This document shows, in pieces, positions 1,445-17,844 of a DNA stretch of 17,844 nt. Within the stretch, counting starts at the first letter, position 1; every line of letters begins with the position of its first letter. Both the position numbers and the translations under genes were made by a program. The stretch comes from a virus (lineage: Duplodnaviria > Heunggongvirae > Uroviricota > Caudoviricetes), in IMG/VR virus record IMGVR_UViG_2547132253_000001; one strand, given 5' to 3'. The notes under the pieces were generated by a model that saw only the letters and a list, made by a program, of their open reading frames with translations, was not told the DNA's origin and ran no database searches.

Positions 1445-1460
1445 TTCAAACATCTCCCCA

Positions 1461-1547: not shown

Positions 1548-1609
1548 TACGGTCAGATGGGGGTACTTATGGGGGTATTTGCTGTTCGGTTTAGTGGAGG
1601 TACCCCCAA

Positions 1610-2824: not shown

Positions 2825-2917
2825 AACAACTGGACAAGTATACAGAGGTTTACTAAAGTATAGGGGAGTAGATTGATAAAAACTCACAGAGGATTACTAT
2901 TTAACAGTTAGCCCTGG

Positions 2918-3214
2918 AGAAGGGCAATCGCTCTTTTAACAACGAAGATGGAATCTTCTACGCAGCTGAAAAGCTGGATGCTCTTTAACAGCCTTTGGTG
3001 CTTTCCTGATGCAGGAAAGAATAGGGATACATGCACCTTTACAATGCATGTAATGATTCATCCATGAGGCTGCGGATCGCTGACAAAGCGCAATTGCTCT
3101 TTAACATTGATGTGGGCGGGATGGTTCGTCCCGCAGTGACCGATAGATTTCTATCGGGAAACATACAATGATTCAAATATGAATCTACGGCGCTGACAAA
3201 GCGCAATTGCTCTC
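2918..3214. repeat. Family of three related direct repeats with a near-palindromic GCAATTGC core, in the int-alpA intergenic region
   Basis: AATGATTCA...CGCTGACAAAGCGCAATTGCTCT at about 3052-3101 and again at about 3166-3213 (23-bp identical core); diverged third copy GGGCAATCGCTCTTTTAACA at 2920-2939. Core AAGCGCAATTGCTCTT is nearly self-complementary. Confidence 0.55.
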
Positions 3215-3355
3215 TTGCCTGCCCACCATGCCCTGAAAAAGGGCGTTCTTTAAAACTACTGGATGTCACGCCTAATAGCGTGATCCTGCCGAAATGCAGG
3301 GTAGCTCTACCCTTGTGGAGCAAACAAACCAAAACAATCTGACTATCTTTTATAA

Positions 3356-3388
3356 AAGACCGCAATATGTTTTTCATATTGTGGTCTT
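3356..3388. repeat. Inverted repeat (14-bp arms, 5-nt T loop), operator-like or hairpin
   Basis: AAGACCGCAATATG-TTTTT-CATATTGTGGTCTT; arms complementary except one position (G.T wobble if RNA); about 90 bp upstream of alpA. Confidence 0.5.
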
Positions 3389-3475
3389 TGGCGTATTCGA
3401 CATTTGATGCAAATAAAACTCTCGCCATTCGTTGCAGGAGGGAGTTATTGCGTCATTAGTACAGGATATTAATAA

Positions 3476-3679
3476 ATGGCTAATTACAATTCATTAATTC
3501 GTCTCTCTGAAGTTCAAAGGCGAACTGGTTATAGCAAAGCATGGATTTATCGTCTTATTAGTCAGGGGAGGTTCCCTAAACAGGTAAAAATTGGAAGTCG
3601 GGCAATTGCTTTTGTTGAGTCTGAAATAGATGAATGGATTGAGAAGTGTATATTAGAATCTAGAGACGAGGTGGCCTGA
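3476..3679 (+). CDS. alpA: AlpA-family phage transcriptional regulator (HTH), 67 aa
   Basis: ATG 3476 to TGA 3677-3679; sequence LIRLSEVQRRTGYSKAWIYRLISQGRFPKQVKIGSRAIAFVESEIDEWI fits the AlpA/MerR-like HTH pattern; stop overlaps the next ATG (TGATG). Confidence 0.85.
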   Translation: MANYNSLIRLSEVQRRTGYSKAWIYRLISQGRFPKQVKIGSRAIAFVESEIDEWIEKCILESRDEVA

Positions 3680-4110
3680 TGGAAAAGAAAAACCGCCCAT
3701 TACAGGCGGCTAATTCAGATATTCGCGTATCTGATGTTACGCCCCTGACAAAATCCCTTCAAGCACCAAAGCGCACACCGAAAAAGCATCGTGCCAGAGT
3801 CTATATGCTGCGTACTGGTATAGAGGGATGGACAGAAAATGACATTCTTCGCTACTGCCGTCTGTCTTCTGGTCGTAACTATGCAACAGAGTTAGAACGC
3901 CAGCTTGGAATCACTCTGGAGCGTATCGACGAAAAGAATCCTGATGGTATCGGAACACACCTTCGCTACCGTTTCTCCTGCCGTGGTGATGTTCTGAAAG
4001 TGATCACTCATGTTAACCATCTTGCGAGCATAAATGATCACAACGGACTTTCTCAGCAGGAAATTGCCGACATTCTGAAACTCTACCCGGACGCGTTTAA
4101 CGCCGCCTAA
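3679..4110 (+). CDS. Hypothetical protein, 143 aa, basic N-terminus
   Basis: ATG 3679 preceded by GAGGTGG; translationally coupled to alpA; no motif I can assign. Confidence 0.6.
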   Translation: MEKKNRPLQAANSDIRVSDVTPLTKSLQAPKRTPKKHRARVYMLRTGIEGWTENDILRYCRLSSGRNYATELERQLGITLERIDEKNPDGIGTHLRYRFSCRGDVLKVITHVNHLASINDHNGLSQQEIADILKLYPDAFNAA

Positions 4111-4122
4111 CGGAGACTGAAA

Positions 4123-4956
4123 ATGAACATCGAAAAAAGCAGATTAATTTCTGAGGCCGCCCCTCATCTGAACGCCTCTCTGGGCACAATTAACGGTAAT
4201 GAATTTGCCGCAATTGTCCCGGTTATTCCTGGTCATATCGGTGGGCGTGAAACCAATATTGTTAGCGCAAAAGCGTTACACAAAGCGTTGGGCGTGGGAA
4301 AAGACTTCTCTACATGGATCACTGATCGCATCTCTGAATATGACTTCACCATTGGGCACGATTACTCAGTCCATAAAACAATTTCCCCAAATTTGGGGAA
4401 AAGCCCGAATGGCGCGGCTTACAGCAAGATTAAGCAGTCTGGCAGACCCGGCAAAGACTATCTGTTAAGTGTCGGAATGGCGAAAGAACTGGCAATGATC
4501 GAACGCAATGATCAGGGTCGCGCTATCCGCCGTTATTTCATCCAGTGCGAGGAAGAATTACAGCGTAGCGTGCCTGAAATCGCCGCCCGCTATCGTCGCC
4601 AGCTAAAAGCCCGTATCAGTGCCGCAAACAACTTTAAGCCAATGTGCGATGCGCTGAATATGGCCCGTGCCGAGATGGGTAAAACGACGCAGCAACACCA
4701 CTACACAAACGAGAGCAATATGATTTCTCGTATCGTTCTTGGTGGGCTAACTGCTAAACAGTGGGCGCGGATAAATGGCTATTCTGGCGAACCTCGCGAC
4801 CATATGAACGCAGAACAACTTGAGCACCTCTCATATCTCGAAAGCACCAATATCACGTTAATTGATATGGGCATGGAATATGAGCAGCGCAAAGGAGAAC
4901 TCACCCGCCTGTCGCAACGCTGGCTCGCCAAGCGTCTGGAGGTGGTCAATGTCTAA
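4123..4956 (+). CDS. Phage antirepressor-like protein (AntA/AntB-type N-terminal domain), 277 aa
   Basis: ATG 4123 with GGAGA SD; N-terminal region NIVSAKALHKALGVGKDFSTWITDRI and following LLSVGMAKELAMIERNDQGRAIRRYFIQCEEEL resemble the AntA/KilAC antirepressor pattern as I recall it. Confidence 0.65.
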   Translation: MNIEKSRLISEAAPHLNASLGTINGNEFAAIVPVIPGHIGGRETNIVSAKALHKALGVGKDFSTWITDRISEYDFTIGHDYSVHKTISPNLGKSPNGAAYSKIKQSGRPGKDYLLSVGMAKELAMIERNDQGRAIRRYFIQCEEELQRSVPEIAARYRRQLKARISAANNFKPMCDALNMARAEMGKTTQQHHYTNESNMISRIVLGGLTAKQWARINGYSGEPRDHMNAEQLEHLSYLESTNITLIDMGMEYEQRKGELTRLSQRWLAKRLEVVNV

Positions 4957-5131
4957 GCCAACAGGAACACCACAACCACAAAAACGCTACAAAGATGCCC
5001 ACGGAGCACTCGTTACTGTCGAAAGCGTGTCTCACAACCGAGTGACGTTTTATCGCGACGGGTATCAATCGCCATGCGTACAACCGCTGGCGCGTTTCAT
5101 GAAGGAGTTCGCGGAGGTTAACAAATGCTAA
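4949..5131 (+). CDS. Small hypothetical protein, 60 aa (DUF4222-like by recollection)
   Basis: ATG at 4949 overlaps the stop of the upstream gene (ATGTCTAA); this is the in-frame C-terminal part of track ORF 4862-5131; sequence MSKPTGTPQPQKRYKDAHGALVTVESVSHNRVTFYRDGY. Confidence 0.5.
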   Translation: MSKPTGTPQPQKRYKDAHGALVTVESVSHNRVTFYRDGYQSPCVQPLARFMKEFAEVNKC

Positions 5132-5562
5132 CCGTCCAGAAGAAGACATTTTCACTGGCTGGTATGTCGCCAAAATCCAGCAATATGACGGCAAAGTCAG
5201 GCATTAATACAGCAGATACAAGCAAAGTTTATCATTTGCTGTTGGTCGGAACGGATGCCTTAACCATATCAGAAATCTCGGGCGATGATATTAGCATTGA
5301 GAAGGTCAGCGGCTGCGCCAGAAAATTTCTGGTCGTAGATGATGTCTTCCGCTCGTGTAGTGACTCCACAAAAACATTCGTCCACGCGCGTGACGTTAAC
5401 GAAATGAGCGCGATGTACTGTGCATCTGGTGCTTCCAATAGCGAGTTTTCGGAGTCCATAAAAAAGAGCTTGCCGTTATGCGGCAACACGGTTTATGGTT
5501 ATAAGGCACCTCATAAAACGGGTGCCGGGATTGGCGTCCTGGTAAATCGAATGGCGACATAT

Positions 5563-5584
5563 GACGCGCCGAGCGTCTTTTTTT
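5563..5584 (+). terminator. Rho-independent terminator
   Basis: GACGC-GCCGA-GCGTC hairpin (5563-5577) followed by TTTTTTT (5578-5584). Confidence 0.6.
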
Positions 5585-5611
5585 ATGTCGTAGGTCTGAC
5601 TCACCCATTTT

Positions 5612-5636
5612 TTGGGCGTTGGTGTATAATCCAGCG
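5612..5636 (+). promoter_or_regulatory. Putative sigma70 promoter (perfect -10 TATAAT at 5625-5630; no good -35)
   Basis: TATAAT hexamer 5625-5630 immediately after the terminator and about 150 nt upstream of the Icd-like start; the -35 element is weak or mis-spaced (TTGGGC at 5612-5617). Confidence 0.3.
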
Positions 5637-5639
5637 CCT

Positions 5640-5786
5640 TTGTCAATCAATGGTGGCTCAGGCAGGGGCTTCTTCGGAAGCGCCGGTATCCATTCGAGCC
5701 GGTTACGCCAACCCTGTCTGGGCTACCACCAGCGAAATTGGCGTTTCCGGTGGTAGCGTTACATGCTATCGAATGGAGGCTGCCAC
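5640..5786 (+). ncRNA. Candidate structured leader / small regulatory RNA (P4 CI- or C4-like immunity RNA hypothesis)
   Basis: GCUUC-UUCG-GAAGC tetraloop hairpin (5668-5681); 9-bp stem GCTACCACC (5722-5730) pairing with GGTGGTAGC (5749-5757); an upstream GGTGG (5652-5656) could pair alternatively with CCACC; no coding frame supported here. Confidence 0.3.
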
Positions 5787-5981
5787 ATGCTGGCTACTAC
5801 CCCTACCCAAAAACCGCAATTTATCTGGATTATCGCCGCAGTTCGCCGCGATTGCCCGACAATTACCGCCAAAATTCATCATATTGCTGCCGAGTCTGAA
5901 CGCGATGCTCGCCGTTCTCTGGTGCGCGATCACGTCTGCTTTTTTGCTGGTCGTATCCGCATGGAGGTGGCTCATGATTAA
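5787..5981 (+). CDS. Icd-like host cell division inhibitor family protein, 64 aa
   Basis: ATG 5787 with GGAGG at 5775-5779; MLATTPTQKPQFIWIIAAVRRDCPTITAKIHH... resembles the Icd-like small proteins of P4-like prophages (recollection). Lies in a different frame inside the artifactual 355-aa track ORF. Confidence 0.65.
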   Translation: MLATTPTQKPQFIWIIAAVRRDCPTITAKIHHIAAESERDARRSLVRDHVCFFAGRIRMEVAHD

Positions 5982-6192
5982 AACCTACGATGTGCATATG
6001 GATCCCCTCGAACGCACAAGCCAGATCATCACACTGACAGAAGTGATTAACGACATTCTGGTGAGCAACTCTCCCTCACGAGACGAAAGACTGAAGGCGT
6101 TACTCGCGATATTGGATCTCGCCGTTCGTGACGTTCATTTCCTGCTGGAAGGTGGCGAAATGCCAGGAAAAACGGGGGCAACCAATGAATAA
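5974..6192 (+). CDS. Hypothetical small protein, 72 aa
   Basis: ATG 5974 preceded by GGAGGTGG (5963-5970); overlaps the Icd-like stop (ATGATTAA); C-terminal in-frame part of track ORF 5125-6192. Confidence 0.55.
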   Translation: MIKTYDVHMDPLERTSQIITLTEVINDILVSNSPSRDERLKALLAILDLAVRDVHFLLEGGEMPGKTGATNE

Positions 6193-6379
6193 CTCAATTA
6201 ATACCCCTCGCCTTACGTCCGCACTTCAATTAATCGAGCAAGCAGCGGCTGTCCTGGTTGCTGTCAGTCTTTCGGCTGAAGAAATGGACGCTGCTGATGT
6301 CGTGGATGCGATTAAAGCGTGCTCATCTTTGGTTAACGATGCCCGTGCCGAGCTGGTAATTCTTGGGGGTGAAAAATGA
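6185..6379 (+). CDS. Hypothetical small protein, 64 aa
   Basis: ATG 6185 overlaps the upstream stop (ATGAATAA); in-frame part of track ORF 6128-6379. Confidence 0.5.
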   Translation: MNNSINTPRLTSALQLIEQAAAVLVAVSLSAEEMDAADVVDAIKACSSLVNDARAELVILGGEK

Positions 6380-6639
6380 ATATCAACTTAATTTATCGTC
6401 ATCCGTGTGAGCTGGAAATTGAATCATTGCTGGGGCGTGAAGAGCCATATCCAGACACATTCACTCCCGCAGATTGCGCGACTGAACGGCTTACCAGAGC
6501 GCGCACAGGTCTGGTTCATGTGATGAATGAGATTGTTCCCTCGGTGGGAGGGGAACAGGCGACAGTAATCAATAGCTGGCTACAAAAAGTTACCTCCCTG
6601 ATAGATATCGGTTTAATCGATGTGGAGAGTGCGAAATGA
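6376..6639 (+). CDS. Hypothetical small protein, 87 aa
   Basis: ATG 6376 overlaps the upstream stop (ATGA); SD GGGGTGA upstream. Confidence 0.55.
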   Translation: MNINLIYRHPCELEIESLLGREEPYPDTFTPADCATERLTRARTGLVHVMNEIVPSVGGEQATVINSWLQKVTSLIDIGLIDVESAK

Positions 6640-6857
6640 CCAACATCCAGCTCATTGAAGCGCAATGTCGCATCGAACAGGTTCAGACTGTTTTAGGGTT
6701 CTGGCTTGAAGGGGCCAGCCCCAGCAACAGAGACAAGTTAATGATTGGCGCGGTTATGTCACTGCTCAATGGCGTACCAGAAGCTATTCAGGAAGCGGAC
6801 GAATTGTTGGGCAAATATGAGTTACAGAATCATTCAGGCGAGGCGAAACATGAATAA
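6636..6857 (+). CDS. Hypothetical small protein, 73 aa
   Basis: ATG 6636 overlaps the upstream stop (ATGA); part of the coupled operon leading to the primase. Confidence 0.55.
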   Translation: MTNIQLIEAQCRIEQVQTVLGFWLEGASPSNRDKLMIGAVMSLLNGVPEAIQEADELLGKYELQNHSGEAKHE

Positions 6858-7452
6858 TTTCTTAACCTTCCATGCAGAAGCAACGCCTGACGGCGTAAAC
6901 ATCATGCACCGCAGCAACGATGGCATGACAGAACGCGTTGAGACCGTCTCATATATTGATGCCGTAAATCGTCTGGATGCCGGGGATTATGACGATAAAC
7001 CAGATGAAGGCATGTTTATACATCTCGCTATTGCCAGTGGCGGCAACCAGGGATATTTCGATTACACATCACAGCATCACGTGATTATGTGGCGCTGGCT
7101 GATAGCAACAGCATTCATCAATGAAATGAGAAAGGAAAACGGCACCGTCAGCATTATTGATGACAGTGGCAATCATTCCGTGGTTTCTGTTTATTCCAAT
7201 GGCATCGTCGCCATGCCGCTGTATCCAGTAGCAGAGCGCCTCGCTATGGCAAACAACATTGAGGGCGCAATGATCGAGAAATATGGTGTTGATGTCGGAA
7301 CAAAGAATGCCATCATTTTTTACAGCAACATGTTCGATGTCGAACAGGGAACACTCACTTCGTTTGGGCGAGAAGTGCTTGCCGATCTTCACAACAGCTT
7401 TATTGCCGAACTAAACGAAAACGGCATCCCAGAAGCACCAGTGACGCACTAA
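6850..7452 (+). CDS. Hypothetical protein, 200 aa
   Basis: ATG 6850 overlaps the upstream stop (ATGAATAA); the track ORF 6745-7452 is extended upstream, but the internal ATG with coupling is the more plausible start; immediately precedes the primase. Confidence 0.6.
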   Translation: MNNFLTFHAEATPDGVNIMHRSNDGMTERVETVSYIDAVNRLDAGDYDDKPDEGMFIHLAIASGGNQGYFDYTSQHHVIMWRWLIATAFINEMRKENGTVSIIDDSGNHSVVSVYSNGIVAMPLYPVAERLAMANNIEGAMIEKYGVDVGTKNAIIFYSNMFDVEQGTLTSFGREVLADLHNSFIAELNENGIPEAPVTH

Positions 7453-7464
7453 ACGGGGGCCAGA

Positions 7465-10221
7465 ATGCGAAACATTGATCTTATCCGTCAGGTTATCAGT
7501 GCGTCTGAAAACAACTGGCCTCATGTGCTGGGCTGTCTGAACATAAATGTCCCTGACTCTCCTCGCCGTCATGCTCCCTGCCCTGCATGTGGGGGCAAAG
7601 ATCGATTCCGGTTCGACGACAACGGGCGCGGTAGCTTCATCTGTAATCAGTGCGGCGCTGGTGATGGGCTGGATTTAATTAAACGCGTAAATAACTGCGA
7701 CACAACAGAGGCGGCGCTTCTTGCCGCTGATGTTCTGGGTATTGATTACCGGACAACGGAAACACCAGAAGCCACCAGCCAGAAACGGGAACAACTGGAA
7801 ACCGAGCGCCAGCGACGCGAACAGGAGCGCCTGAAAAGGGCAGAGAAGGACGAACAACAAAGACGGGATACGTTTTCCCGTCAGTTTGATGACATGCGCA
7901 GAAAGGCTGTAAACGGCAAATCTGATTATCTGGTTGCGAAAGGGGTAGGTGATTTTACATTCCCAGTGTTGCCCGATGGATCTCTGTTGCTGGCGCTGGT
8001 GGATAAATCCGGCGCAGTCACAGCAGCACAGACTATTACCTCACATGGTGAAAAAAGACTCCTGACAGGTTCAGCAAAGCGAGGGGCATATCACGCCATA
8101 AACGCACCAGAAACAACACAGAGCATCTTAATCGCAGAAGGGCTGGCAACGGCATTATCTGCCCATTTAATTCGTCCAGAATCGCTGACAGTGGCGGCGA
8201 TTGATGCCGGGAACCTGTTATATGTCGCCCAGGTACTGCGGGATAAATTTCCTTCAGCACAAATCATCATTGCTGCGGATAACGACCACAGCGAAGGAAG
8301 ACAAAACACGGGGAGAATAGCAGCAGAAAAAGCAGCTTTATCTGTTTCTGGATGGGTGGCATTACCCCCGACAGATCACAAAGCAGACTGGAATGATTAC
8401 CACCAAAAACACGGCATTAAATGCGCCACAGAAGCGTTCAATAAGTCAATGTACCAACCACAGGGTAATGGCGTGAAACAGCAGCCACAGACCATTGAGG
8501 GAAGCGATTTTAAGGTTATGGATACCGACCCACTGAAACCAAGAATAGAAAGCCGCGAGGATGGTATTTATTGGGTATCTCCGAGAGCTGACAGCCAGAG
8601 TGGAGAAATCATCAATAACGAAAGCTGGTTATGTTCTCCGTTAAGCGTTATCGGTACTGGCAGAGACGATAAAGACCAGTATCTCATTCTTCGCTGGCTG
8701 TCGTTTGGTTCTGAAACGCCGACAACCGCTGCCATTCCACTGGCTGATATTGGTGAACGTGAAGGATGGCGCACACTTAAAGCTGGTGGGGTAAATGTCA
8801 CGACCAAAAGCAGCCTCAGAGCAATACTGGCAGACTGGCTACAACGCAGTGGCTCTCGTGAATTGTGGCGTGTTGCTCATGCCACTGGCTGGCAATGCGG
8901 AGCGTACATCATGCCTGATGGGGAAATCATCGGAACACCTGAAAATCCTGTGCTGTTCAGCGGGAGAAGCTCAGCCGCAGCCGGATATACCGTCTCAGGG
9001 AGCGCGAAAAGCTGGCGTGATAACGTGGCGCGTCTGGCCTTTGGTAACTATTCAATGATGACCGGGATCGGCGCAGCACTGGCAGCGCCATTGATTGGGC
9101 TGGTGGGCGCTGACGGGTTCGGCATTCATTTCTATGAGCAGTCGAGCGCAGGTAAGACCACCACGGCAAACGTGGCGAGCAGCTTATACGGCAACCCTGA
9201 TTTACTGCGGCTGACGTGGTACGGAACCGCGCTGGGGCTGGCAAATGAAGCCGCCGCCCACAATGACGGACTAATGCCGCTTGATGAAGTTGGTCAGGGC
9301 GCTGATCCTGTCAGTGTTTCACAGTCTGCCTATGCGTTATTTAACGGTGTAGGGAAACTGCAAGGCGCTAAAGATGGTGGAAACCGGGATCTAAAACGCT
9401 GGCGTACAGTGGCAATCAGCACTGGAGAAATGGATTTAGAAACATTTATCGCTACTTCCGGGCGAAAAACCAAAGCCGGGCAACTGGTGCGACTGCTGAA
9501 TATTCCGTTGAGTAAAGCAGTACGCTTTCACGATTACCAGAACGGAAAACAGCACGCAGACGCACTGAAAGACGCTTACCAGCATCACCACGGCGCAGCC
9601 GGGCGTGAGTGGATTAAATGGCTGGCAGACCACCAGCAACAGGCTATTAAAACTGTTCGTGACTGCGAAAGCAGATGGAGAAGCCTGATTCCATCCGATT
9701 ATGGTGAGCAGGTTCACCGTGTAGCCGCGCGATTTGCCATTCTGGAGGCCGCATTGCTGTTAGGCGAGGTTGTAACAGGCTGGGATGCTCAGACATGCCG
9801 TGATGCGATACAGCACAGCTATAACGCATGGTTGCGCGAGTTCGGCACAGGTAACAAAGAACATCAGCAGATTATTGAACAAACGGAGGCATTTCTTAAT
9901 GCCTATGGGCTTAGCCGTTTTGCACCATTTCCATACAGCCCGGCAGATTTGCCAATCAAAGATTTAGCCGGATACCGTCAGCGTGGAGAACATGACGAAA
10001 GCCCAATGATTTTCTACACATTCCCGGCCACATTTGAAAAGGAGATCGCATGTGGTTTCAACGCAAAACAGTTTGCTGAAGTGTTGAAAAAAGCCGGGAT
10101 GCTAACCCCACCAAACAGCGGTCGTGGATACCAAAGAAAATCACCACGTATTCAGGGACGACAAATAAACGTTTATGTACTCAATTACCAGCCAGGAGAT
10201 TACAACTCATCTGAAGAATGA
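7465..10221 (+). CDS. P4 alpha-like replication protein: zinc-finger/TOPRIM primase fused to a P-loop (D5/DUF927-like) helicase, 918 aa
   Basis: ATG 7465 with GGGGG SD; N-terminal zinc motif CPACGGKDRF...FICNQCG; TOPRIM-like acidic motif IIIAADNDHSEGR; P-loop FYEQSSAGKTTTANV in the C-terminal half; followed directly by iterons. Confidence 0.9.
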   Translation: MRNIDLIRQVISASENNWPHVLGCLNINVPDSPRRHAPCPACGGKDRFRFDDNGRGSFICNQCGAGDGLDLIKRVNNCDTTEAALLAADVLGIDYRTTETPEATSQKREQLETERQRREQERLKRAEKDEQQRRDTFSRQFDDMRRKAVNGKSDYLVAKGVGDFTFPVLPDGSLLLALVDKSGAVTAAQTITSHGEKRLLTGSAKRGAYHAINAPETTQSILIAEGLATALSAHLIRPESLTVAAIDAGNLLYVAQVLRDKFPSAQIIIAADNDHSEGRQNTGRIAAEKAALSVSGWVALPPTDHKADWNDYHQKHGIKCATEAFNKSMYQPQGNGVKQQPQTIEGSDFKVMDTDPLKPRIESREDGIYWVSPRADSQSGEIINNESWLCSPLSVIGTGRDDKDQYLILRWLSFGSETPTTAAIPLADIGEREGWRTLKAGGVNVTTKSSLRAILADWLQRSGSRELWRVAHATGWQCGAYIMPDGEIIGTPENPVLFSGRSSAAAGYTVSGSAKSWRDNVARLAFGNYSMMTGIGAALAAPLIGLVGADGFGIHFYEQSSAGKTTTANVASSLYGNPDLLRLTWYGTALGLANEAAAHNDGLMPLDEVGQGADPVSVSQSAYALFNGVGKLQGAKDGGNRDLKRWRTVAISTGEMDLETFIATSGRKTKAGQLVRLLNIPLSKAVRFHDYQNGKQHADALKDAYQHHHGAAGREWIKWLADHQQQAIKTVRDCESRWRSLIPSDYGEQVHRVAARFAILEAALLLGEVVTGWDAQTCRDAIQHSYNAWLREFGTGNKEHQQIIEQTEAFLNAYGLSRFAPFPYSPADLPIKDLAGYRQRGEHDESPMIFYTFPATFEKEIACGFNAKQFAEVLKKAGMLTPPNSGRGYQRKSPRIQGRQINVYVLNYQPGDYNSSEE

Positions 10222-10243
10222 GCTTCTTCATGTGCGTAGAAAA

Positions 10244-10360
10244 GGTGTTGGTTCAGTTGGTTCAGTTGGTTCAATTTGTAAAGAGTATTGTTTTATAAGG
10301 ATTTTATTCTTTTTATTGAACCAACACTGAACCAACAACACGGTATTTTGAACCAACACA
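10244..10360. repeat. Origin-like iteron cluster (ori): 3 tandem GTTGGTTCA, about 43-bp AT-rich spacer, 3 inverted TGAACCAAC
   Basis: GTTGGTTCA at 10247-10255, 10256-10264, 10265-10273; AT-rich 10274-10316; TGAACCAAC at 10317-10325, 10328-10336, 10349-10357; 22 bp downstream of the primase stop. Confidence 0.7.
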
Positions 10361-10678
10361 ATGTGACTGAATTGATGCGCACAACACCTGGCTGGCATCA
10401 GAGAGTGTTTTACGAGACTTTCGTAAAATCCTGTGTACAAGGGCGTGACGTTTTTGAAAGTGAGCACTACGAAATTTTCGTAGTTCAAAAAACAGCCTTT
10501 GAGAAGTTGTTATGCCTGTTCAGCAAACCATCCGCATAGCTGATCGCGAATCAAATTACCAATGGAGCCAGAAGCAAGGGCAGAACTGGAAAGCGCCTGC
10601 CGTGAAGAGTAATGCGACACCATAAATATAGTTTTTAGAGTCCATAAAAAACCTGTCAAAACCTGACATACAGAACGA

Positions 10679-10710
10679 TGCCACCAGCTACTGAGCGGTG
10701 GCATTTTTTT
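10679..10710 (+). terminator. Rho-independent terminator separating the replication module from the cargo operon
   Basis: TGCCACC...GGTGGCA stem (10679-10703) followed by TTTTTTT (10704-10710). Confidence 0.55.
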
Positions 10711-10805
10711 GTGCTATTTGTTTCATATTTTGCAATTACGATGATGAATATTGCGATTTGTGAAACTATAATAACTGTTGTTTTATACAGTTCTAAGGGG
10801 GCGTT

Positions 10806-10979
10806 ATGGCTATTTCAGTAAAGCCAGTATTGATAAGTGAGAAGCAAATGGAAGCGATAAAGAAAATTCAGGAGGAGCAGCGTAAAAAATCAGAGGTAGG
10901 AGTTGCGCCAACGATCCACGAAATTGCTCGGGGATTAATGGATAAGGCGCTGGCTTACACTTTAACTGGACGTGGGTAA
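10806..10979 (+). CDS. Small protein, 57 aa, possible ribbon-helix-helix DNA-binding protein; first gene of the cargo operon
   Basis: ATG 10806 preceded by strong SD AAGGGGG (10795-10801) and a TATAAT at 10767-10772; below the 60-aa cutoff of the ORF track; sequence MAISVKPVLISEKQMEAIKKIQEEQRKKSEVGVAPTIHEIARGLMDKALAYTLTGRG. Confidence 0.45.
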   Translation: MAISVKPVLISEKQMEAIKKIQEEQRKKSEVGVAPTIHEIARGLMDKALAYTLTGRG

Positions 10980-10983
10980 ATCA

Positions 10984-12450
10984 ATGGCTACGTGGCAACA
11001 GGGTATTAATTCTGGTGGTTTTCTGGCTGGCATCGGTACGCAAAATGAGAATGCGCCAAAGGCAAGCGACATTAACGCAACGCTTGGTCTGATCCGCGAA
11101 AACAATGAACTGGCTCGCTCAGGTGCAAATAACGTTGGTCTGACCGCGTTACGTGGTCTGGCTGGAGTTGCTGATATTTATAAGCAGCAGCAACAGCAGG
11201 AGCGTAAAGCGGCATTCCAGAAAGGTTATGCAGATGCTTATGCGTCCGGCGACAGGGAGCAGATGCGTAATCTTATTACAGCATTCCCAGAAGAGTTTGA
11301 GGAAGTCCGTAAAGGGATGAGTTATGTCGATGATGCTCAAAGGGATGATTATGGCAATCTGGCGCTCAAAGCACAGGTAGCCTCATCGCTTGGTCCGGGC
11401 GCATTTGGCAGGTTCATGATGGATAATGAGCAGGAGATGCGTCGTTTAGGTATCCCTCCAGAAACTATTGCTGAAATGCAGGTTAATGACCCGCAGGGCT
11501 TCCAGCATTTCGCAGGTAATCTGGCGCTGTTTTCTCTCGGTCATGAGAAGTATTTCGATATCAAAGATCAAATGGAAGGTCGGGATATTGAGCGCGGCGA
11601 GTTGGCAGAGACAATCCGCAGCAATCAGGCTGGCGAAGCACTTCAGGCGAGAGGGCAGGATATTAGCCGAGCAAATGCGTTAACGTCAGCATATGCACCA
11701 ACAGCAGCAATGCAGAATTACAATCAGTACGCTCAAATGTTAAAGGCGGATCCAGAGGGGGCGGCGGCATTTGCGGCAGCGGCTGGAATTAATACAAACG
11801 CCAAAAAATTAATGAGTGTTAGGGAAAACGATGATGGCACTGTCACAAAATACTACACAGACGGAAGTGAAGAGCAGGGAAAACTAAACCAGCCAATATC
11901 TGGAGATGGGTTTCGTCCAATAGCTTTGCCAACAGCTCAAAAGATCATGGAAAAGTCGCCAGAAGGGGCTAAAAAAGCTGCTGGATTTGCATACAGAGTT
12001 AGGGATGCTCTTGATTCAATGGATACACTGAAAGGCCAGATTAGCCCACAGCGAGTGGCGATCATTAATAATGCTTTGGGTAATGGGACGCTGGCTAACT
12101 TAACGCTCAGCCCAACAGAGCAGCAATACGTTGTTAATGCTAATGACGCAATAATGGCAATACTCCGTCAGGAAACAGGGGCAGCTATCGTACCTGCTGA
12201 AATGTCAAAATATTATCAAATGTATTTCCCTCAGCCTGGTGATTCCACAAAAACCATTGATACCAAGCGCCGGAAGATGGAAAACCAGTTCAATTCGCTG
12301 AAAGCTGCTTCTGGTCGAGCTTATGATGCTTTGCAGGTTATTTCAGCAGTTGACAGAGGAACTTCTTCTTCGTCGCAGACATTGCCGCAATCTGAGCAGG
12401 TATCACAGCCAGCAGCCAGCAGTAACTTTTCTTCACTATGGGGTGATTAA
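10984..12450 (+). CDS. Uncharacterized Ala/Gln/Gly-rich protein, 488 aa (cargo gene 1)
   Basis: Long ORF; ATG at 10984 (MATWQQ) preferred over the track GTG at 10972; low-complexity composition (QQQQQ run, AAAFAAAAG), few aromatics, no catalytic or NTP-binding motif I can see; stop overlaps the next start. Confidence 0.7.
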   Translation: MATWQQGINSGGFLAGIGTQNENAPKASDINATLGLIRENNELARSGANNVGLTALRGLAGVADIYKQQQQQERKAAFQKGYADAYASGDREQMRNLITAFPEEFEEVRKGMSYVDDAQRDDYGNLALKAQVASSLGPGAFGRFMMDNEQEMRRLGIPPETIAEMQVNDPQGFQHFAGNLALFSLGHEKYFDIKDQMEGRDIERGELAETIRSNQAGEALQARGQDISRANALTSAYAPTAAMQNYNQYAQMLKADPEGAAAFAAAAGINTNAKKLMSVRENDDGTVTKYYTDGSEEQGKLNQPISGDGFRPIALPTAQKIMEKSPEGAKKAAGFAYRVRDALDSMDTLKGQISPQRVAIINNALGNGTLANLTLSPTEQQYVVNANDAIMAILRQETGAAIVPAEMSKYYQMYFPQPGDSTKTIDTKRRKMENQFNSLKAASGRAYDALQVISAVDRGTSSSSQTLPQSEQVSQPAASSNFSSLWGD

Positions 12451-13427
12451 TGGCTAAAGCATGGAAAGATGTTATCGCCTCTCCACAGTATCAGGCGTTA
12501 GCACCAGAACAAAAAGCGCAGGCTCAGGAGCAATACTTCAACGAAGTCGTTGCCCCGCAAGCCGGAGAAAGTGTAGAGCAGGCTAAGCAGGCTTTTTATG
12601 CTGCCTATCCACTACCATCAACGAATGAAATAGACCGAGCCCAATCAGCAACTCAAAATATTCAACATACATCATCTGATAATTCTCTTGCGTCAGGGTA
12701 TGCAAAGTTAGCGACTCAGCAAAGAGAGGGGCTTGAACGTTCAGCAGAACAGGGAGCCAGTCTTGGGGCTGCGATGCGCGATGCTATAACAGGCGAAAGC
12801 CGAATGACTCCAGAGATGGAGAGACTGCAAAATGTCGACCTTGCCCCAGAGTTAACCTCACTCAGCATGGATGCTCTAAAAGCTCGATGGTCTCAACTTT
12901 TCGGCTCTGACGCATCTCAGGAAAAGATTCTTCAGAGCATGGGAGCGAAATTAAGGCAGGATGAGAAGGGTAACACTATCGTTTCCCTACCATCCGGTGA
13001 TTATGCTCTGAACAAGCCGGGTTTATCACCGCAAGACGTGGCATCGTTTCTGGCTAATGCGCTGGCGTTTACACCAGCGGGCAGGGCCGGAACGGTGCTG
13101 GGGGCCATAGGGAAATCAGCAGCTACAGATTTAGCACTACAGGGAGCCACCAGCCTCGCTGGTGGAGAAGATATTGATCCGTTACAAACGGTAATCTCTG
13201 CTGGCATTGGCGGCATTGGTAAGGGTCTGGAGAATACAGTGAGTGCCGTTTCGAGGGCCGTTCGCGGTGATATGGCACCGGAAGCGAAAGCCGCTGTTGA
13301 TTTTGCATCGGAAAGAAACCTACCGTTAATGACCAGTGACGTACTGAAAGATAAAAACACTGTGCAGAGTCTGGCCCAGAAAACAGGCGAAAAAATTCCT
13401 TTTTTGGAACGGGTACGAACAGGCTGA
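12450..13427 (+). CDS. Uncharacterized Ala/Gly/Ser-rich protein, 325 aa (cargo gene 2); possibly the N-terminal part of a frameshifted fusion with gene 3
   Basis: ATG 12450 overlapping the gene 1 stop (TAATG), SD-like GGGG upstream; glycine-rich stretches (VLGAIGKSAATDLALQGATSLAGG, ISAGIGGIGKG); ends 22 nt after a T_TTT_TTG heptamer. Confidence 0.65.
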   Translation: MAKAWKDVIASPQYQALAPEQKAQAQEQYFNEVVAPQAGESVEQAKQAFYAAYPLPSTNEIDRAQSATQNIQHTSSDNSLASGYAKLATQQREGLERSAEQGASLGAAMRDAITGESRMTPEMERLQNVDLAPELTSLSMDALKARWSQLFGSDASQEKILQSMGAKLRQDEKGNTIVSLPSGDYALNKPGLSPQDVASFLANALAFTPAGRAGTVLGAIGKSAATDLALQGATSLAGGEDIDPLQTVISAGIGGIGKGLENTVSAVSRAVRGDMAPEAKAAVDFASERNLPLMTSDVLKDKNTVQSLAQKTGEKIPFLERVRTG

Positions 13428-13576
13428 ATCAACAACAGGCTCGGGAAAATCTGGTCAGAACATATAACGATGGTCTGGGAGGCATTTCAGATAAACAGCT
13501 TTATGAGTCTGCTACTAAAGGGCAGCAAAAATTCATTGAGGCCGCAGGTAAGCGATATAACCGCATAATTGACGCT

Positions 13577-14554
13577 ATGGGGGATACCCCTGTCGACCTA
13601 TCAAACACGGTAAAAGCTATCGACAATCAGATTGCCGTGTTAAGCCGCCCGGGCAAATCTCAGGATAGAGCCGCGGTAAAAGTCTTGCAGCAATTTAAAG
13701 ACGATATCACCAGCGGACCCAATGACCTGCGTCTGGCGAGAGAAAACAGAACTGACCTTCGAAAGCGGTTCATGAATTCAAACGAGACTGTTGATAAAGA
13801 CACGCTCCAGAAAGCCAGCGATATTGTCTACAAGGCATATACGCTGGATATGAGAAGGGCAGTAGCCCAGAAACTGGGTTCAGAAGAAGCAGCCAATATG
13901 GCAAGGGTTGATCGCTCATGGTCTAAATTCAATGACATGATGGGAAGAACGCGCGTTCAAAAGGCAATAGCCAGCGGCAAGGCCACGCCTGAGGATGTAA
14001 CAAAACTCGTGTTTAGCCAAAGCCCATCAGAACGTTCTCAGCTTTACAGGCTTCTGGATGACAATGGTAGGCAAAACGCACGAGCAGCCATAGTTCAGAA
14101 TGCTGTAGATAAGGCGACTGATCCGTCTGGAAATATCAGTGTTGAGAAGTTTATTAATGCGTTACACCGGAACAGGAAGCAATCAGCAACTTTCTTTAAA
14201 GGCGTGCACGGAAAGGAACTGGACGGCATTATTAAATACCTCAACGATACCAGACAGGCGGCAAAGGTTGACGGTCAGAAATTAAACAGCCAGAAACTTT
14301 ATGGCCTGCTGGTTGGTGGAGGCGCTATAAATGCGGCAGTTCTGGCGGGGATGCTGAAAACGGCTGCGTTTGTTGTTCCTGCTGCTGGTGCTTTAGGCGG
14401 AGCAGCGAAGGCATACGAAAGCCCTGTTATACGAAATGCCTTATTACGTCTGGCAAATACGCCAAAAGGTAGCACAGCATATGACAGAGCGATCAGTACA
14501 GTCACACAATCACTGACCACAGCAGCACAAGCATCGCAAAAGGAAGCTCAATAA
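13577..14554 (+). CDS. Uncharacterized protein, 325 aa as annotated (cargo gene 3), with C-terminal glycine-zipper hydrophobic hairpin; reading frame is open upstream to 13355
   Basis: First ATG at 13577 has no SD; the same frame is open and protein-like from 13355 with no ATG/GTG/TTG in between; hydrophobic Gly/Ala-rich segments LYGLLVGGGAINAAVLAGML and AAFVVPAAGALGGAA near the C-terminus. Confidence 0.6.
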   Translation: MGDTPVDLSNTVKAIDNQIAVLSRPGKSQDRAAVKVLQQFKDDITSGPNDLRLARENRTDLRKRFMNSNETVDKDTLQKASDIVYKAYTLDMRRAVAQKLGSEEAANMARVDRSWSKFNDMMGRTRVQKAIASGKATPEDVTKLVFSQSPSERSQLYRLLDDNGRQNARAAIVQNAVDKATDPSGNISVEKFINALHRNRKQSATFFKGVHGKELDGIIKYLNDTRQAAKVDGQKLNSQKLYGLLVGGGAINAAVLAGMLKTAAFVVPAAGALGGAAKAYESPVIRNALLRLANTPKGSTAYDRAISTVTQSLTTAAQASQKEAQ

Positions 14555-14613: not shown

Positions 14614-15012
14614 TTAACACTTGCCTTTAACATTGCCGACAAATGAGCCTGTAAATGAGCCTATATCAGATCGACTAATTGTTCGTGTATGGATCACTTT
14701 TCCGTCATTTGAGATTGCCCATGTGACAAGCGTCAGTTGACCATCTCGATAGCTTCTTCCCATCATGGCATTCGGAGATAGCGGGTAATAATCAATACCT
14801 CCACCTATACCATCTTTTGCCAAGATAAGATCCGCCTTCTCTTTACTTATTACCAAATGAAAGGTATCTGGTATAGATGATAACTTATAGTTATACCCAT
14901 CTGAACTTGAGGCTTCTTGTCCTTTCAGATCACCAATAATCCAGCATTCAGCGTTCGCTCCAAAAGAAGCAAATAATAAACCGGAGACAACCAATCGCTT
15001 CAATTGATTCAC
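14614..15012 (-). CDS. Small secreted/periplasmic protein of unknown function, 132 aa precursor with Sec signal peptide
   Basis: GTG start (complement of 15010-15012) preceded on the minus strand by strong SD AAGGGAGGG; N-terminus MNQLKRLVVSGLLFASFGANA then E (positively charged n-region, hydrophobic core, A-x-A cleavage motif); the longer 218-aa track ORF 14614-15270 is an upstream extension lacking an SD. Confidence 0.6.
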   Translation of the reverse strand: MNQLKRLVVSGLLFASFGANAECWIIGDLKGQEASSSDGYNYKLSSIPDTFHLVISKEKADLILAKDGIGGGIDYYPLSPNAMMGRSYRDGQLTLVTWAISNDGKVIHTRTISRSDIGSFTGSFVGNVKGKC

Positions 15013-15204
15013 ACCAACCCTCCCTTTAGCGTTGTTTAGAATGGCAATCATCATATATCCAAGACATGGCATTTGGTACATAGCTTGGGTCGGGATTTCA
15101 AATCCGCCCCCGTTGATGGGGTCGTTACAGTACGCGCATATCCGCTTTATGTGAAACAGGAAGATTTTTCTGATATCACTGCCACAGCAAAACACCAATT
15201 TCGA

Positions 15205-15505
15205 GACAAGTACGCGCGCGAGGGGTATCAGTTGCAAAAAGTTTTGCAACTGCGTCCGACCAGTACGCACACAATGGAGGGGAGTACCATGAAACTGTTC
15301 TCTACACGAGACAGAGTGGTGGTGATGTGTTGATTATCGGCGTATATGCGCACAGGACGCGCTATGACGATGTTTTATGCGGGTACACCATCACATGTAT
15401 CTGGTGTGATAAATCGCGTTACATGACCTCTCATGTTGTGCTGGTGGTTATCACGACTTTCTGAATCTGGCCTTTGCCTGATATTTTGCGACAAGTACGC
15501 GCGCG
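15205..15505. repeat. Two copies of a 16-bp perfect direct repeat GACAAGTACGCGCGCG (15205-15220 and 15490-15505), with a related inverted partial copy between them
   Basis: Identical 16-mers 285 bp apart with similar left flanks (TTTCGA / TTTTGC); alternating CG core; related GTACGCGCATAT at 15130-15141 and its near-complement ATATGCGCAC at 15345-15354. Confidence 0.5.
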
Positions 15506-15656
15506 TAGCATCGAAATTATCGGATGGCGTATGCTGCTGGCAATATGAAGACCGATAGTATTAACCGAAAAGCGATTAAGGAGTGCCAACTTTTCAGTAG
15601 AGAAACTAGCCAGCATAGGAAAATGTAGAAATTACCCAATTAATAGGTAAAAGTTA

Positions 15657-15774
15657 TTGACACAGCCTGTAGTGGATAACGATATGAATAAAAACCACAT
15701 ATAGTGGTTTTTCGTGAGTGATGATAGTACCTATGTTAGTTTCCTAAGTAACTGTGCATTGACATGTGGATAAC
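15657..15774 (+). promoter_or_regulatory. Two TTGACA hexamers each followed by a DnaA-box-like GTGGATAAC motif, upstream of the Abi gene
   Basis: TTGACA 15657-15662 followed by AGTGGATAAC 15671-15680; TTGACA 15759-15764 followed by TGTGGATAAC 15765-15774 (TGTGGATAA is the reverse complement of the DnaA box TTATCCACA); palindrome AAAAACCAC-ATATA-GTGGTTTTT at 15690-15712. Confidence 0.35.
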
Positions 15775-15884
15775 TTCGGATAGAGTTACACTCAACTGAG
15801 CCCGGCCCCCTGGCTTTATCTTGTCTTAGATGAGAAATTGTTATGGCCGGGCCTTCTTGTATCTGGAGGTAGGAAACCTTTTGT

Positions 15885-16754
15885 ATGGCTGTTCCGGTTA
15901 AGGTTCATAAAGAATATGATGAACTTGTCGATTTATTGCTGTCTCGGGGTATGGATGTGCCAGATCGCGAACATGCTATCAAGAAAATCTCACAAGTAGG
16001 CTACTACCGATTATCAGGCTTTTGGTACCCCTGCCGAATCCCCCATATAACAACAGACAATATTAGAACCAGACTCGATCAGGTTCGTCCAGGTACTAAT
16101 TTTCGCGCAGTATATGACCTCTATTTATTCGATAAAAATCTGCGTTTGCAGATGATGAATGCGTTAGAACGCATTGAGGTTTATGTTCGGTCAGTTATTG
16201 CTCATGAGCTTGGTAAGATATCTCCTTTAGCATATCTTGATGACTCGCTAATAAATCCAAAACACTTTAGACCACGTTCCCATGGTCGCCCAAGCGCCAG
16301 AGAAGAATGGATAAATAAACATAATGCCGAGATTGCTAAAAGTCGCGAAGACTTTATCAAATGGCATGAAAACAAGTACGAAGGTCTTCCTTTCTGGGTG
16401 GTTATTGAAGTGTGGGACTTCGGCTTAATGTCAAAGTATTATGCGATGCTAAAAGACAGCTATCGCAACAGGATACTATCTAGGCTAGGGATAGCGGCAG
16501 GCAATGGAGCTATCTTCCAAAACTGGCTTAGCGCAATGAATGTGCTAAGGAATCGGTGCGCTCACCATTCACGCATCTGGAACAAGGTCAACGAACCAAG
16601 ATTAATGCCTTTGCCAAATGAGCCGTACTTTGAACAATTAAATATGAATGATGATGCGTACGAAAGAATGTACGGAATGATCGCTGTGTTATGGTTTTTA
16701 GTGAAAAAAATTGGACCGGGATCTGACTGGATAAAAAAGTTGCCAACCTTGTAG
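15885..16754 (+). CDS. Abi_2 family (AbiD/AbiF-like) abortive-infection protein with HEPN-type R-x4-H motif, 289 aa
   Basis: N-terminal EYDELVDLLLSRGMDVPDREHAIKKISQVGYYRLSGFWYP matches the conserved Abi_2 N-terminal pattern as I recall it; LRNRCAHHSRIWN (nt about 16549-16572) carries an R-x4-H HEPN-like motif; ATG 15885, stop TAG 16752-16754. Confidence 0.8.
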   Translation: MAVPVKVHKEYDELVDLLLSRGMDVPDREHAIKKISQVGYYRLSGFWYPCRIPHITTDNIRTRLDQVRPGTNFRAVYDLYLFDKNLRLQMMNALERIEVYVRSVIAHELGKISPLAYLDDSLINPKHFRPRSHGRPSAREEWINKHNAEIAKSREDFIKWHENKYEGLPFWVVIEVWDFGLMSKYYAMLKDSYRNRILSRLGIAAGNGAIFQNWLSAMNVLRNRCAHHSRIWNKVNEPRLMPLPNEPYFEQLNMNDDAYERMYGMIAVLWFLVKKIGPGSDWIKKLPTL

Positions 16755-16847
16755 ATAACAAGCCTAACTTACCAGGATGTAACCTGACAGCCATGGGATT
16801 ACCTGATAATAACGGTTTCCCAAGGCATTTATTTGATATTGAATAAA

Positions 16848-17303
16848 TTATAGCGATGGCGCTGAATGTAGCGCCACTGATAACTTTTCAGCATTGCTTC
16901 CCTGACGCTTCCACGCGCTGTAAATATCTTTATCCCATGCCTTACCAGCTTTTGTTTGATAGCCTGCTTCATTGATCCGTTCAGCTATCACGCGCCCATT
17001 ATCAAATCCCTGTCGGATGGTATCGGCAATGATCTTTATAACTGCCGTTTCGTTATATGGCTTTGGTGGGATGTTCGGCTTTCCGGCAATAAGCGACGCA
17101 GCGGCTTTTTCCATGCGCTCCACCAGCCCAAGCATTCGTGAATCAATAGACTTTTCCGGCTGTCCCAGCTTCATGCGAATCGCATCAACAAGCCAGGAGG
17201 TTTTATCCCCTCCAGAAGCGAGAACAGACCGATTAAACTCATCCTGCAATTCAGATGGGATGCGGAACGCGACCAGATTAGATTTGCTCATTGCAAAGAC
17301 CAT
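16848..17303 (-). CDS. Putative DNA-binding regulator, 151 aa (N-terminal ribbon-helix-helix-like, C-terminal recombinase-type HTH-like segment)
   Basis: Minus-strand ORF convergent with the Abi gene; N-terminus SNLVAFRIPSELQDEFNRSV; C-terminal NGRVIAERINEAGYQTKAGKAWDKDIYSAWKRQ resembles the DNA-binding segment seen in serine-recombinase-associated domains. The start (first or second ATG) is uncertain. Confidence 0.55.
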   Translation of the reverse strand: MVFAMSKSNLVAFRIPSELQDEFNRSVLASGGDKTSWLVDAIRMKLGQPEKSIDSRMLGLVERMEKAAASLIAGKPNIPPKPYNETAVIKIIADTIRQGFDNGRVIAERINEAGYQTKAGKAWDKDIYSAWKRQGSNAEKLSVALHSAPSL

Positions 17304-17400
17304 ATCAGTGAGTAATATCCATACAGTATACCACTGTATAACACTGTTATACGCTCAAATATCAGCCAGAAAATAACGGACCAATCACAAAGCTATCGCT

Positions 17401-17529
17401 GTGTTGTTGGTTCAGAGCTGGGCTGTGTTGGTTCAAAATGAGTTGATGTTGGTTCAATATTTTAGAAAAAACACAATAAAAACAACGATCTTTACAAATT
17501 GAACCAACTGAACCAACTGAACCAACACC
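17401..17529. repeat. Second iteron cluster (crr-like), inverted relative to the ori cluster
   Basis: GTTGGTTCA at 17405-17413, 17427-17435, 17448-17456; AT-rich spacer; tandem TGAACCAAC x3 at 17500-17526; 17489-17529 is the exact reverse complement of 10244-10284 (41 bp). Confidence 0.7.
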
Positions 17530-17562
17530 TTTTTGCTTATCTATATAATCTGAGAGGCAGAA

Positions 17563-17844
17563 ATGATAAGGGACAGGAAAGCTGAAGAGCTGGAGTCAAA
17601 AGGGCTATACCGGAGAGCTGCCGCACGATGGATGGAAGTCATGCTGTTATGCACCGAGGACGATGATCGGGAATGGATAAAGCGCCGCCGTGAAACGTGT
17701 CTGGAGAACGTGAAGCGCCCGCCCGTGAAGGTTGAGGAATTTGGCGACCTGCATAAAGCTGTTACCGAAACGCAACACCGCATGGGGATAGCGCAACCGA
17801 ACGGTAACGCCTTCCGGTTAAATGGCGGCAAGAGGCAAAGGTAG
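17563..17844 (+). CDS. PerC-family-like small transcriptional regulator, 93 aa (family assignment tentative)
   Basis: ATG 17563 to TAG 17842-17844; MIRDRKAEELESKGLYRRAAARWMEV... resembles the PerC/Pch N-terminal motif as I recall it; SD-like GAGAGG upstream. Confidence 0.5.
   Translation: MIRDRKAEELESKGLYRRAAARWMEVMLLCTEDDDREWIKRRRETCLENVKRPPVKVEEFGDLHKAVTETQHRMGIAQPNGNAFRLNGGKRQR

Follow-up and report, generated by a model that had tools for sequence, protein, structure and literature searches.

A conserved structured RNA directly upstream of an Abi_2-family gene in an EcCIMP1-like satellite element

A recent proposal derives Cas13 from AbiF, and the CRISPR RNA (crRNA) from the antitoxin RNA of AbiF. 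To our knowledge, only one class of RNA, the abiF RNA of Rfam (RF03085), has been tied to AbiF so far. AbiD and AbiF proteins are HEPN ribonuclease (RNase) toxins of type III toxin-antitoxin systems, and the antitoxin RNA is encoded just upstream of the toxin gene (PMC12373285; PMC12737573; PMC13064643). One such system, PbAbiF-AbiFr of the Prevotellaceae, was reported by Zilberzwige-Tal et al. (Cell 2025) and is taken here as it is described in PMC12737573 and PMC12373285. The present analysis concerns a 17,844-nucleotide stretch of DNA from a virus of the Caudoviricetes (IMG/VR record IMGVR_UViG_2547132253_000001; "the window" below), which carries a gene of this family, abi, within a satellite element. 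The locus is probably a two-part module of the AbiD/AbiF type, in which, by analogy with the systems already studied, a small structured RNA upstream of abi would serve as the type III antitoxin of a HEPN RNase. The new part, as far as sequence comparison can tell, is the class of this RNA, named R1, which is a variant of the known AbiF-plus-RNA design.

The upstream RNA and the Abi protein

The initial annotation had presented abi as a standalone gene, a description that had to be given up: directly upstream lies a structured RNA that is conserved, shows covariation and has a promoter of its own (Table 1). The RNA is a bulged hairpin of about 60 nucleotides (nt; 15800-15852 and a U-rich tail), and abi starts about 30 nt past it. 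Its minimum free energy fold has -26.3 kcal/mol (z of -3.3), and an identical architecture was obtained for all seven diverse homologues that were folded. A TTGACA box and a -10 element, at an equal distance ahead of the RNA motif, are visible in most related loci. In a survey of 5426 complete Escherichia coli genomes, the abi gene of the window was found in 54-55, and the promoter stretch 15750-15804 without this gene in 75. Among these 75 genomes the stretch is 94.5% conserved, and in the one examined (97-3250, L162) it precedes a different abi allele.

For comparison, 80 related loci were fetched, which encode Abi relatives at 40-87% identity and come from Enterobacterales, Pseudomonas, Vibrionaceae, Desulfobacterota, cyanobacteria and others. 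In the shared upstream layout, the TTGACA/-10 promoter is followed by AAYNG(Y)-GCCCGRNC-CYC-UG, a variable hairpin and UA-Y-GNYCGGGC-CUUCUUGUUU. Covariation was assessed in a MAFFT alignment of 42 sequences, with slid partners and 500 shuffles as controls. Paired bases filled 92.9% of the alignment cells, as against 30-45% with slid partners, and none of the 500 shuffles matched the observed values. Both sides change in 14 of the 17 pairs. G-U cells (145) far exceed A-C cells (6), and the structure is therefore that of a sense-strand RNA. The unpaired CYC bulge, the UG/UA positions and the AAYNG 5' flank are invariant, as is the CCUUCU tail.

The R1 covariance model matched the window with 60.9 bits (E-value of 1.8e-15). 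Exactly one match per locus was found in 76 of the 80 loci, as well as in the window and in L001, always on the abi strand and nowhere else in 664 kb. The 3' end of R1 lies 13-63 nt ahead of the start codon in 75 of the 76 matching loci; in the exception (L047), the match is 3 kb upstream of a disrupted gene. The loci without a match comprise a 5'-truncated gene (L007), a contig without upstream DNA (L016) and two Pasteurellaceae loci (L077 and L079), which fold to the same shape with a different P1 sequence.

That the hairpin might be the known abiF motif was ruled out by reciprocal covariance-model tests with a positive control. RF03085 gave no match at an E-value of 10 or below in 14950-15950 of the window, nor in the R1-bearing loci L002, L008, L019 and L067, and the R1 model gave none at the PbAbiF loci. 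As the positive control, RF03085 matched the PbAbiF loci and their relatives from metagenomes, just upstream of the gene, with 52-58 bits against a gathering score of 37. When the window was compared with Rfam 15, only tRNA-Thr, C4 and isrK were matched, all away from the region upstream of abi, for which no Rfam family was found at an E-value of 10 or below. R1 and the abiF RNA have a common design, consisting of a basal stem that begins with CCCG, a CCUCU-like tract left unpaired on the 5' side and a U-rich tail. Their position and strand relative to the gene are also equal, whereas topology and length differ. Because the design is shared while topology and length differ and neither model recognizes the other RNA, R1 is treated as a putative second RNA class for AbiF-type systems, its newness being judged against Rfam 15 and RF03085.

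The protein itself was placed in the Abi_2/HEPN family by the initial annotation, from a YYRLSGFW region and an R-x4-H motif (RNRCAHH) in a protein of 289 amino acids (aa). Both motifs are present, as GYYRLSGFW at residues 39-47 and RNRCAHH at residues 222-228, and both are invariant in a 24-sequence family alignment. The Pfam search proposed at that time was run and bore the family claim out: Abi_2 (PF07751) matched with an E-value of 2.7e-52 (178.2 bits, where the cut-off is 25.6), and the match spans positions 3-184 of the 184 in the profile. The PADLOC AbiD model agreed (E-value of 5.1e-54), and the RefSeq label of the orthologue is "Abi family protein". Among PDB sequences, PbAbiF (8VZ6) was the sole phmmer match (E-value of 7.5e-34, Abi residues 10-307, 29% identity). 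In this alignment R222 and H227 of Abi (R222-N-R-C-A-H227) fall on the catalytic residues R210 and H215 of PbAbiF, whose R210A+H215A variant was reported to be inactive (PMC12373285). An AlphaFold2 (AF2) model of the 320-aa form had a mean predicted local distance difference test (pLDDT) score of 91.4. Foldseek against the PDB returned 8VZ6_A as the sole match at an E-value of 0.001 or below, with template modelling (TM) scores of 0.75/0.80 over 316 columns. By profile, alignment and predicted fold, the assignment of abi to the Abi_2 (AbiD/AbiF) HEPN proteins is secure and far beyond chance. Among cultured phages, zero nucleotide matches to abi or to the R1 RNA were found, and phage protein matches to Abi, chiefly from Firmicutes phages with a few uncultured faecal phage records, were all at 32% identity or less.

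In E. coli 97-3250, the RNA and the protein are both replaced while the promoter is kept. Since the allele breakpoint falls inside the 5' arm of P1, the alignment of the alleles shows RNA and protein to have been exchanged as one unit. On the model of PbAbiF-AbiFr and of AbiF-RCd22 from Clostridioides difficile, the upstream RNA would be a type III antitoxin that attaches to the Abi dimer and occludes its RNase site, and the hairpin with its U-tract would also end most transcripts ahead of abi. Phage infection would upset the balance of RNA to protein and free the RNase, which would cut cellular and phage RNA; the cell would die or arrest before phage release, and the infection would be aborted. 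From lactococcal AbiD/F, we infer by analogy an anti-phage defence role for this abi clade.

The frameshifted copy and alternative readings

The 289-aa open reading frame (ORF) of the initial annotation exists as read. However, its end is an artefact of a shortened homopolymer, which that annotation missed. The same gene in E. coli MSB1_8G encodes 320 aa, and the sole difference of consequence is a run of seven adenines (A7) in place of the six (A6) in the window. After the A6 run, the frame of the window stops following six foreign residues, and about 36 codons continue out of frame to the TAA at 16844-16846, the end of the intact gene. Relatives have about 320 aa, and the homologues span 315-335 aa. 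The lost segment holds the invariant residues K293, P294, C299, G305 and P313 (24-sequence alignment), aligns with PbAbiF through residue 290 of 300 and is ordered in the AF2 model (pLDDT of 93-97). Judged by this conserved segment, the window allele, with its stop at residue 289, is not full length. Because the 1-nt deletion takes away the conserved, ordered C-terminal residues, the 289-aa protein is probably impaired if the deletion is real.

The locus might then be a decaying pseudogene, in which the frameshift is real, the toxin is inactivated and what is left is a remnant without a defence role, whose intact RNA may persist as an orphan antitoxin. We lean against this reading but give it real weight. 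Besides the loss of about 36 conserved residues, there are 14 contigs on record that encode the very same truncated protein (WP_001367043.1). A second homopolymer deletion of 1 nt, from T7 to T6 at 13394-13399, splits the neighbouring gene for a 701-aa P22 gp16-like injection protein (12450-14554), as would fit decay of the element. However, both indels shorten 7-mer homopolymers, which is a classic signature of sequencing error, and for this reason sequencing error is suggested for both. The A6 form occurs in none of the 55 complete E. coli genomes with the gene, all of which show 72 nt across the site against 71 in the window. The rest of abi is 99% identical to intact alleles with no other lesions, and the HEPN core and the R-x4-H motif are intact.

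Copies of R1 were also found apart from abi. A search of IMG/VR with a degenerate R1 pattern gave 47 contigs, and the R1 model confirmed 36 of them with 38-78 bits. About 14 carry abi right downstream, and about 22, roughly 14 of them distinct, are without abi in the fetched DNA. These orphan RNAs (38-74 bits) lie mostly in intergenic gaps of late structural operons, such as those that follow the major head gene, precede portal, scaffold or tail genes, or separate an internal virion protein from the tail fibre. Their structure is kept, with 91% of the cells paired as against 24-42% with slid partners, and P2 covaries. Bases of the flanks and bulges that the search pattern did not include are retained as well. 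The orphan in L175 resembles a standalone small RNA (sRNA) gene: it has a TTGACA promoter to itself and ends in a U7 tail (terminator).

That the same RNA occurs in phages without an abi gene to regulate argues against a hairpin that is purely a cis leader, acting as attenuator, terminator or translational operator, with Abi as a single-protein system activated without RNA. Such a leader would account for the U-rich tail after the hairpin and for its distance of 15-30 nt from the ribosome-binding site, and RCd22 of C. difficile does act partly via premature termination. Yet a terminator needs neither invariant unpaired nucleotides, as in the bulge, the UG/UA positions and the 5' flank of R1, nor an invariant tail, and the RNA is bound to the protein in each of the two AbiF systems studied. 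We therefore hold a pure cis leader to be improbable.

R1 may be a second AbiF antitoxin class, undescribed relative to Rfam, of a large proteobacterial, desulfobacterial and cyanobacterial clade of Abi_2, with phage orphans that act as decoys or an Abi RNA that mimics a phage RNA sensed by the toxin; this wider proposal is tentative, and we consider it somewhat doubtful. As decoys, the orphan RNAs would keep the AbiF toxin of the host neutralised during infection, an RNA mimicry like that of pseudo-ToxI against ToxIN. Alternatively, the Abi RNA would imitate the phage RNA to which the toxin responds. Phage-borne antitoxin mimics of ToxIN were reportedly described by Blower et al. in 2012. An RF03085 RNA was noted, without interpretation, in a lytic cyanophage (PMC9964418).

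It is also unlikely that the module chiefly serves addiction (post-segregational killing), stabilising the island in the chromosome, rather than anti-phage defence: type III toxin-antitoxin logic suits both roles, the element that carries the module is excisable and prophage stabilisation was raised as a possibility for C. difficile (PMC12373285), but lactococcal AbiD, AbiD1 and AbiF were discovered by their anti-phage phenotype (PMC13064643), the slot is swapped among alleles and other cargo like defence hotspots, and the phage-borne orphan copies of R1 suggest an arms race.

The reading preferred here remains a two-part module in which R1 would be the antitoxin of Abi, and several points weigh against it. 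Owing to the frameshift in the copy of the window, the module may lack activity in the source strain. EcCIMP1, the sole tested member of the family of the host element, is without abi, and there is thus no link from abi to the measured phenotypes of the satellite. The hairpin could work purely in cis as an attenuator. Lastly, the antitoxin function of R1 is argued by analogy only, because RF03085 is blind to the R1 loci and R1 is blind to the PbAbiF loci.

The satellite element and its cargo slot

The window has the layout of a phage-inducible chromosomal island (PICI), with int, alpA and the primase gene in order at tRNA-Thr and with P22-type ejection proteins as the sole virion-related genes. 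Since the window ends inside perC, attR lies outside it. A P4-type satellite was considered and set aside, as Psu-, Sid- and Delta-like proteins were not found in the window and the PICI/EcCIMP1 type fits instead. EcCIMP1 of E. coli MP1 has the same integration site, tRNA-Thr next to proA, and is 94-98% identical to the window in nucleotide sequence over 1254-10954, 15087-15570 and 17426-17844, which include int, alpA, antA, ash, the primase gene and perC (PMC11773190). It differs in having no match over 15571-17425, where it lacks abi and holds a gene for a 53-aa helix-turn-helix (HTH) protein, and the two elements have divergent alleles of the ejection-protein module. Work on EcCIMP1 showed its induction and transduction by the P22-like phage Kapi1 and did not find any known defence system in it (PMC11773190). 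Whereas EcCIMP1 has been mobilised experimentally, the element of the window is known here from sequence alone.

There is good support for a host element of the EcCIMP1 kind, a phage-inducible island inserted at tRNA-Thr, and abi would accordingly travel with a satellite of P22-like phages. On this ground, the earlier description of abi as satellite cargo holds, and abi lies in a slot that holds other genes in related elements. The convergent ORF in the same slot was rejected as a partner of Abi. It is 92% conserved beside the 50%-identical abi allele and is also found beside non-abi cargo, and therefore tracks the element and not Abi.

The initial annotation had also noted a repeat-rich upstream region of about 870 bp and had taken it as a sign of tight regulation of abi. 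The gap is indeed about 869 bp, if the minus-strand ORF upstream starts at the GTG at 15013-15015, and it does contain short repeats. These include five CAGTACGCGCA-like copies of the AGTACGCGC type in 15129-15502 and a perfect 11-nt palindrome, CAGTTGCAAAA-AG-TTTTGCAACTG, at 15229-15252. The stretch 15016-15570 also has a variable microsatellite of TACATG units near 15397 and a direct repeat of 23 nt (15198/15483). The repeats, however, lie in the backbone and not in the abi module. The backbone stretch 15016-15760 was present in 545 of the 5426 complete genomes whatever the cargo, whether different or none. As judged from these genomes, 15016-15570 is non-coding backbone of the element, and only about 125 bp (15759-15884) belong to abi. 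The regulatory part of the claim thus fell away, as 15016-15570 is found with different cargo or with none. The AGTACGCGC repeats were rejected as regulators of abi for the same reason; over the whole window their count is marginally above chance, being reached in 7 of 200 shuffles. DnaA boxes (TGTGGATAA-like, 15672 and 15766) were rejected as an origin, since one of them lies in the promoter spacer and lacks conservation in L002 and L003.

Some further features of the element were noted. The minus-strand ORF at 14614-15015 encodes 133 aa from its GTG, with a GGGAGG Shine-Dalgarno sequence and a Sec-type signal peptide, and matches phrog_2651 (function unassigned). It lies directly after the gp16-like gene, and related elements have a different ORF there. 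It may be a superinfection-exclusion moron; P22 carries sieA at what we take to be the matching position. Although the satellite is without capsid, tail and lysis genes, it has its own P22-type ejection genes in 10806-14554, for an Inj_translocase-domain protein (10972-12450) and a DNA-transfer/transglycosylase injection protein (12450-14554). This stretch has patches of 86-93% nucleotide identity to P22-like genes 20 and 16 of Salmonella phages, such as ST104 and UPF_BP1.

Two clusters of TGAACCAAC iterons, each of six exact copies (three per strand), lie at 10247-10357, just after the primase gene, and at 17406-17526, just upstream of perC; none of 200 shuffles reached this count. As the second cluster is an inverted copy of the first, the two bracket a 7-kb segment with the ejection-protein genes and abi. 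They are probably the replication origin or the iterons of the island. Inside the 355-aa "Ash family" ORF, isrK (67 bits, 5506-5583, plus strand) and the C4 antisense RNA (79.5 bits, 5646-5733, plus strand) were matched. This suggests an antisense-RNA immunity switch in the style of P1, P7 and P4 over the antirepressor region of the island, and the call of the long ORF may be wrong. At the Edwardsiella orthologue of abi (L002), sRNA-Xcc1 (RF02221, 75 bits) was found at 6379-6467, 1.4 kb downstream of the gene. This sRNA is associated with integrons and mobile elements, and its presence hints at a different mobile context there.

Table 1. Features of the window, occupants of the cargo slot in related elements and examples of orphan R1 copies. 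Positions are those of the window unless a locus is named.
Feature	Position	Strand	Remarks
proA	1-1254
tRNA-Thr	1369-1441		Rfam
Integrase	1610-2824
AlpA	from 3476
AntA	from 4123
Ash	5125-6192		C4 and isrK RNAs inside
Toprim+DUF927 primase	7465-10221
P22-type ejection-protein genes	10972-14554
Two 325-aa ORFs from the split gp16-like gene	12450-13427 and 13577-14554		T6 run
Small secreted-protein ORF	14614-15015	-
Accessory (cargo) slot relative to EcCIMP1	15571-17425	.	abi promoter, RNA, abi and convergent ORF; EcCIMP1 alignment
Predicted sigma-70-type promoter of the abi module	15759-15786	+	-35 TTGACA 15759-15764, 16-nt spacer, -10 TAGAGT 15781-15786; consensus scan 10/12
Conserved structured RNA motif (model R1)	15794-15866	+	candidate antitoxin/leader RNA; sole R1 match in the window
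R1 P1 stem, GCCCGGCC/GGCCGGGC	15800-15807 with 15845-15852	+
R1 5' bulge CCC	15808-15810	+
R1 P2	15811-15843	+
R1 3' bulge U	15844	+
R1 pyrimidine/U-rich tail CUUCUUGUAUCUGG	15853-15866	+
abi ORF as read in the window	15885-16754	+	289 aa, Abi_2/AbiD-F HEPN RNase family, C-terminally truncated; R-x4-H at residues 222-227
A6 homopolymer, frameshift site (A7 in the intact allele)	16733-16738	+	alignment to E. coli MSB1_8G
Out-of-frame remnant of the conserved C-terminal ~36 codons (VANLVDNKPNLPGCNLTAMGLPDNNGFPRHLFDIE, then stop)	16739-16846	+	in frame in L001, residues 285-320
Convergent ORF	16848-17303	-
perC	from 17563
Slot in L162 (E. coli 97-3250)			50%-identical abi with its own R1-type RNA (43 bits), same promoter
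Slot in L163			ImmA/IrrE and a hypothetical gene
Slot in L164			small hypothetical gene
Slot in L165 (EcCIMP1)			HTH gene
Orphan R1, L170	1147-1203
Orphan R1, L185	5958-6020
Orphan R1, L190	1099-1161
Orphan R1, L213	5596-5658
Orphan R1, L204	5826-5889
Orphan R1, L209	12770-12832
Orphan R1, L183	3052-3114
Orphan R1, L180	1454-1517
Orphan R1, L175	4138-4201

Comparison with known AbiF-type and type III systems

Taken alone, the window gives a modest result: the defence gene and the satellite that carries it are both of known kinds, and the gene is probably disabled. A second RNA architecture in a broad Gram-negative clade, swapped together with its protein, would be a natural experiment on the co-evolution of specificity between HEPN toxins and their RNAs. 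Defence finders that consider only proteins would call this locus a one-gene "AbiD", and would miss both the RNA that is needed for cloning and testing and the frameshifted alleles. The orphan R1 copies of phages, if they are decoys, would represent a new RNA-based anti-defence strategy.

Among type III systems, ToxIN and AbiQ also consist of an RNase toxin neutralised by a cis-encoded RNA, with abortive infection as the outcome; for the present locus this scheme is proposed by analogy. The toxin fold is unrelated, and ToxI consists of repeats in a tandem array that follows a terminator, whereas R1 is a single hairpin with no tandem repeats. The plasmid-borne Abi systems of Firmicutes (PMC13064643) belong to the same Pfam and PADLOC family as Abi. 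In these systems, the sequence upstream is better conserved than the gene itself and is required for function or cloning. They are carried on plasmids, in contrast to the satellite described here.

AbiFCd-RCd22 of the C. difficile prophage phi027 (PMC12373285) likewise pairs an Abi_2 toxin, carried by a mobile element, with a non-coding RNA (ncRNA) that is encoded upstream and has its own promoter. A terminator-like 3' end yields a short RNA together with a read-through abi mRNA in that system (PMC12373285), and the same is predicted for the window. RCd22 has two RF03085 motifs and lies in the prophage lysis module, whereas the window has one R1 motif in the accessory slot of a satellite. AbiFCd and the Abi of the window share about 29% protein identity.

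PbAbiF-AbiFr (PDB 8VZ6, "PbAbiF dimer bound to ncRNA") has a protein of the same family and predicted fold, with the R-x4-H motif aligned. Its RNA, encoded on the strand of the gene and shortly before it, is also a small hairpin, which has a GC-rich basal stem with CCCG at its start, an unpaired CCUCU-like tract and a U-rich tail. The two RNAs differ in build. The abiF RNA of Rfam has 37 nt, with two stems of 6 and 3 bp and a loop of 11 nt, whereas R1 has a P1 of 8 bp, bulges of 3 nt on the 5' side and 1 nt on the 3' side, and a P2 of at least 9 bp, for a total of 53-65 nt.

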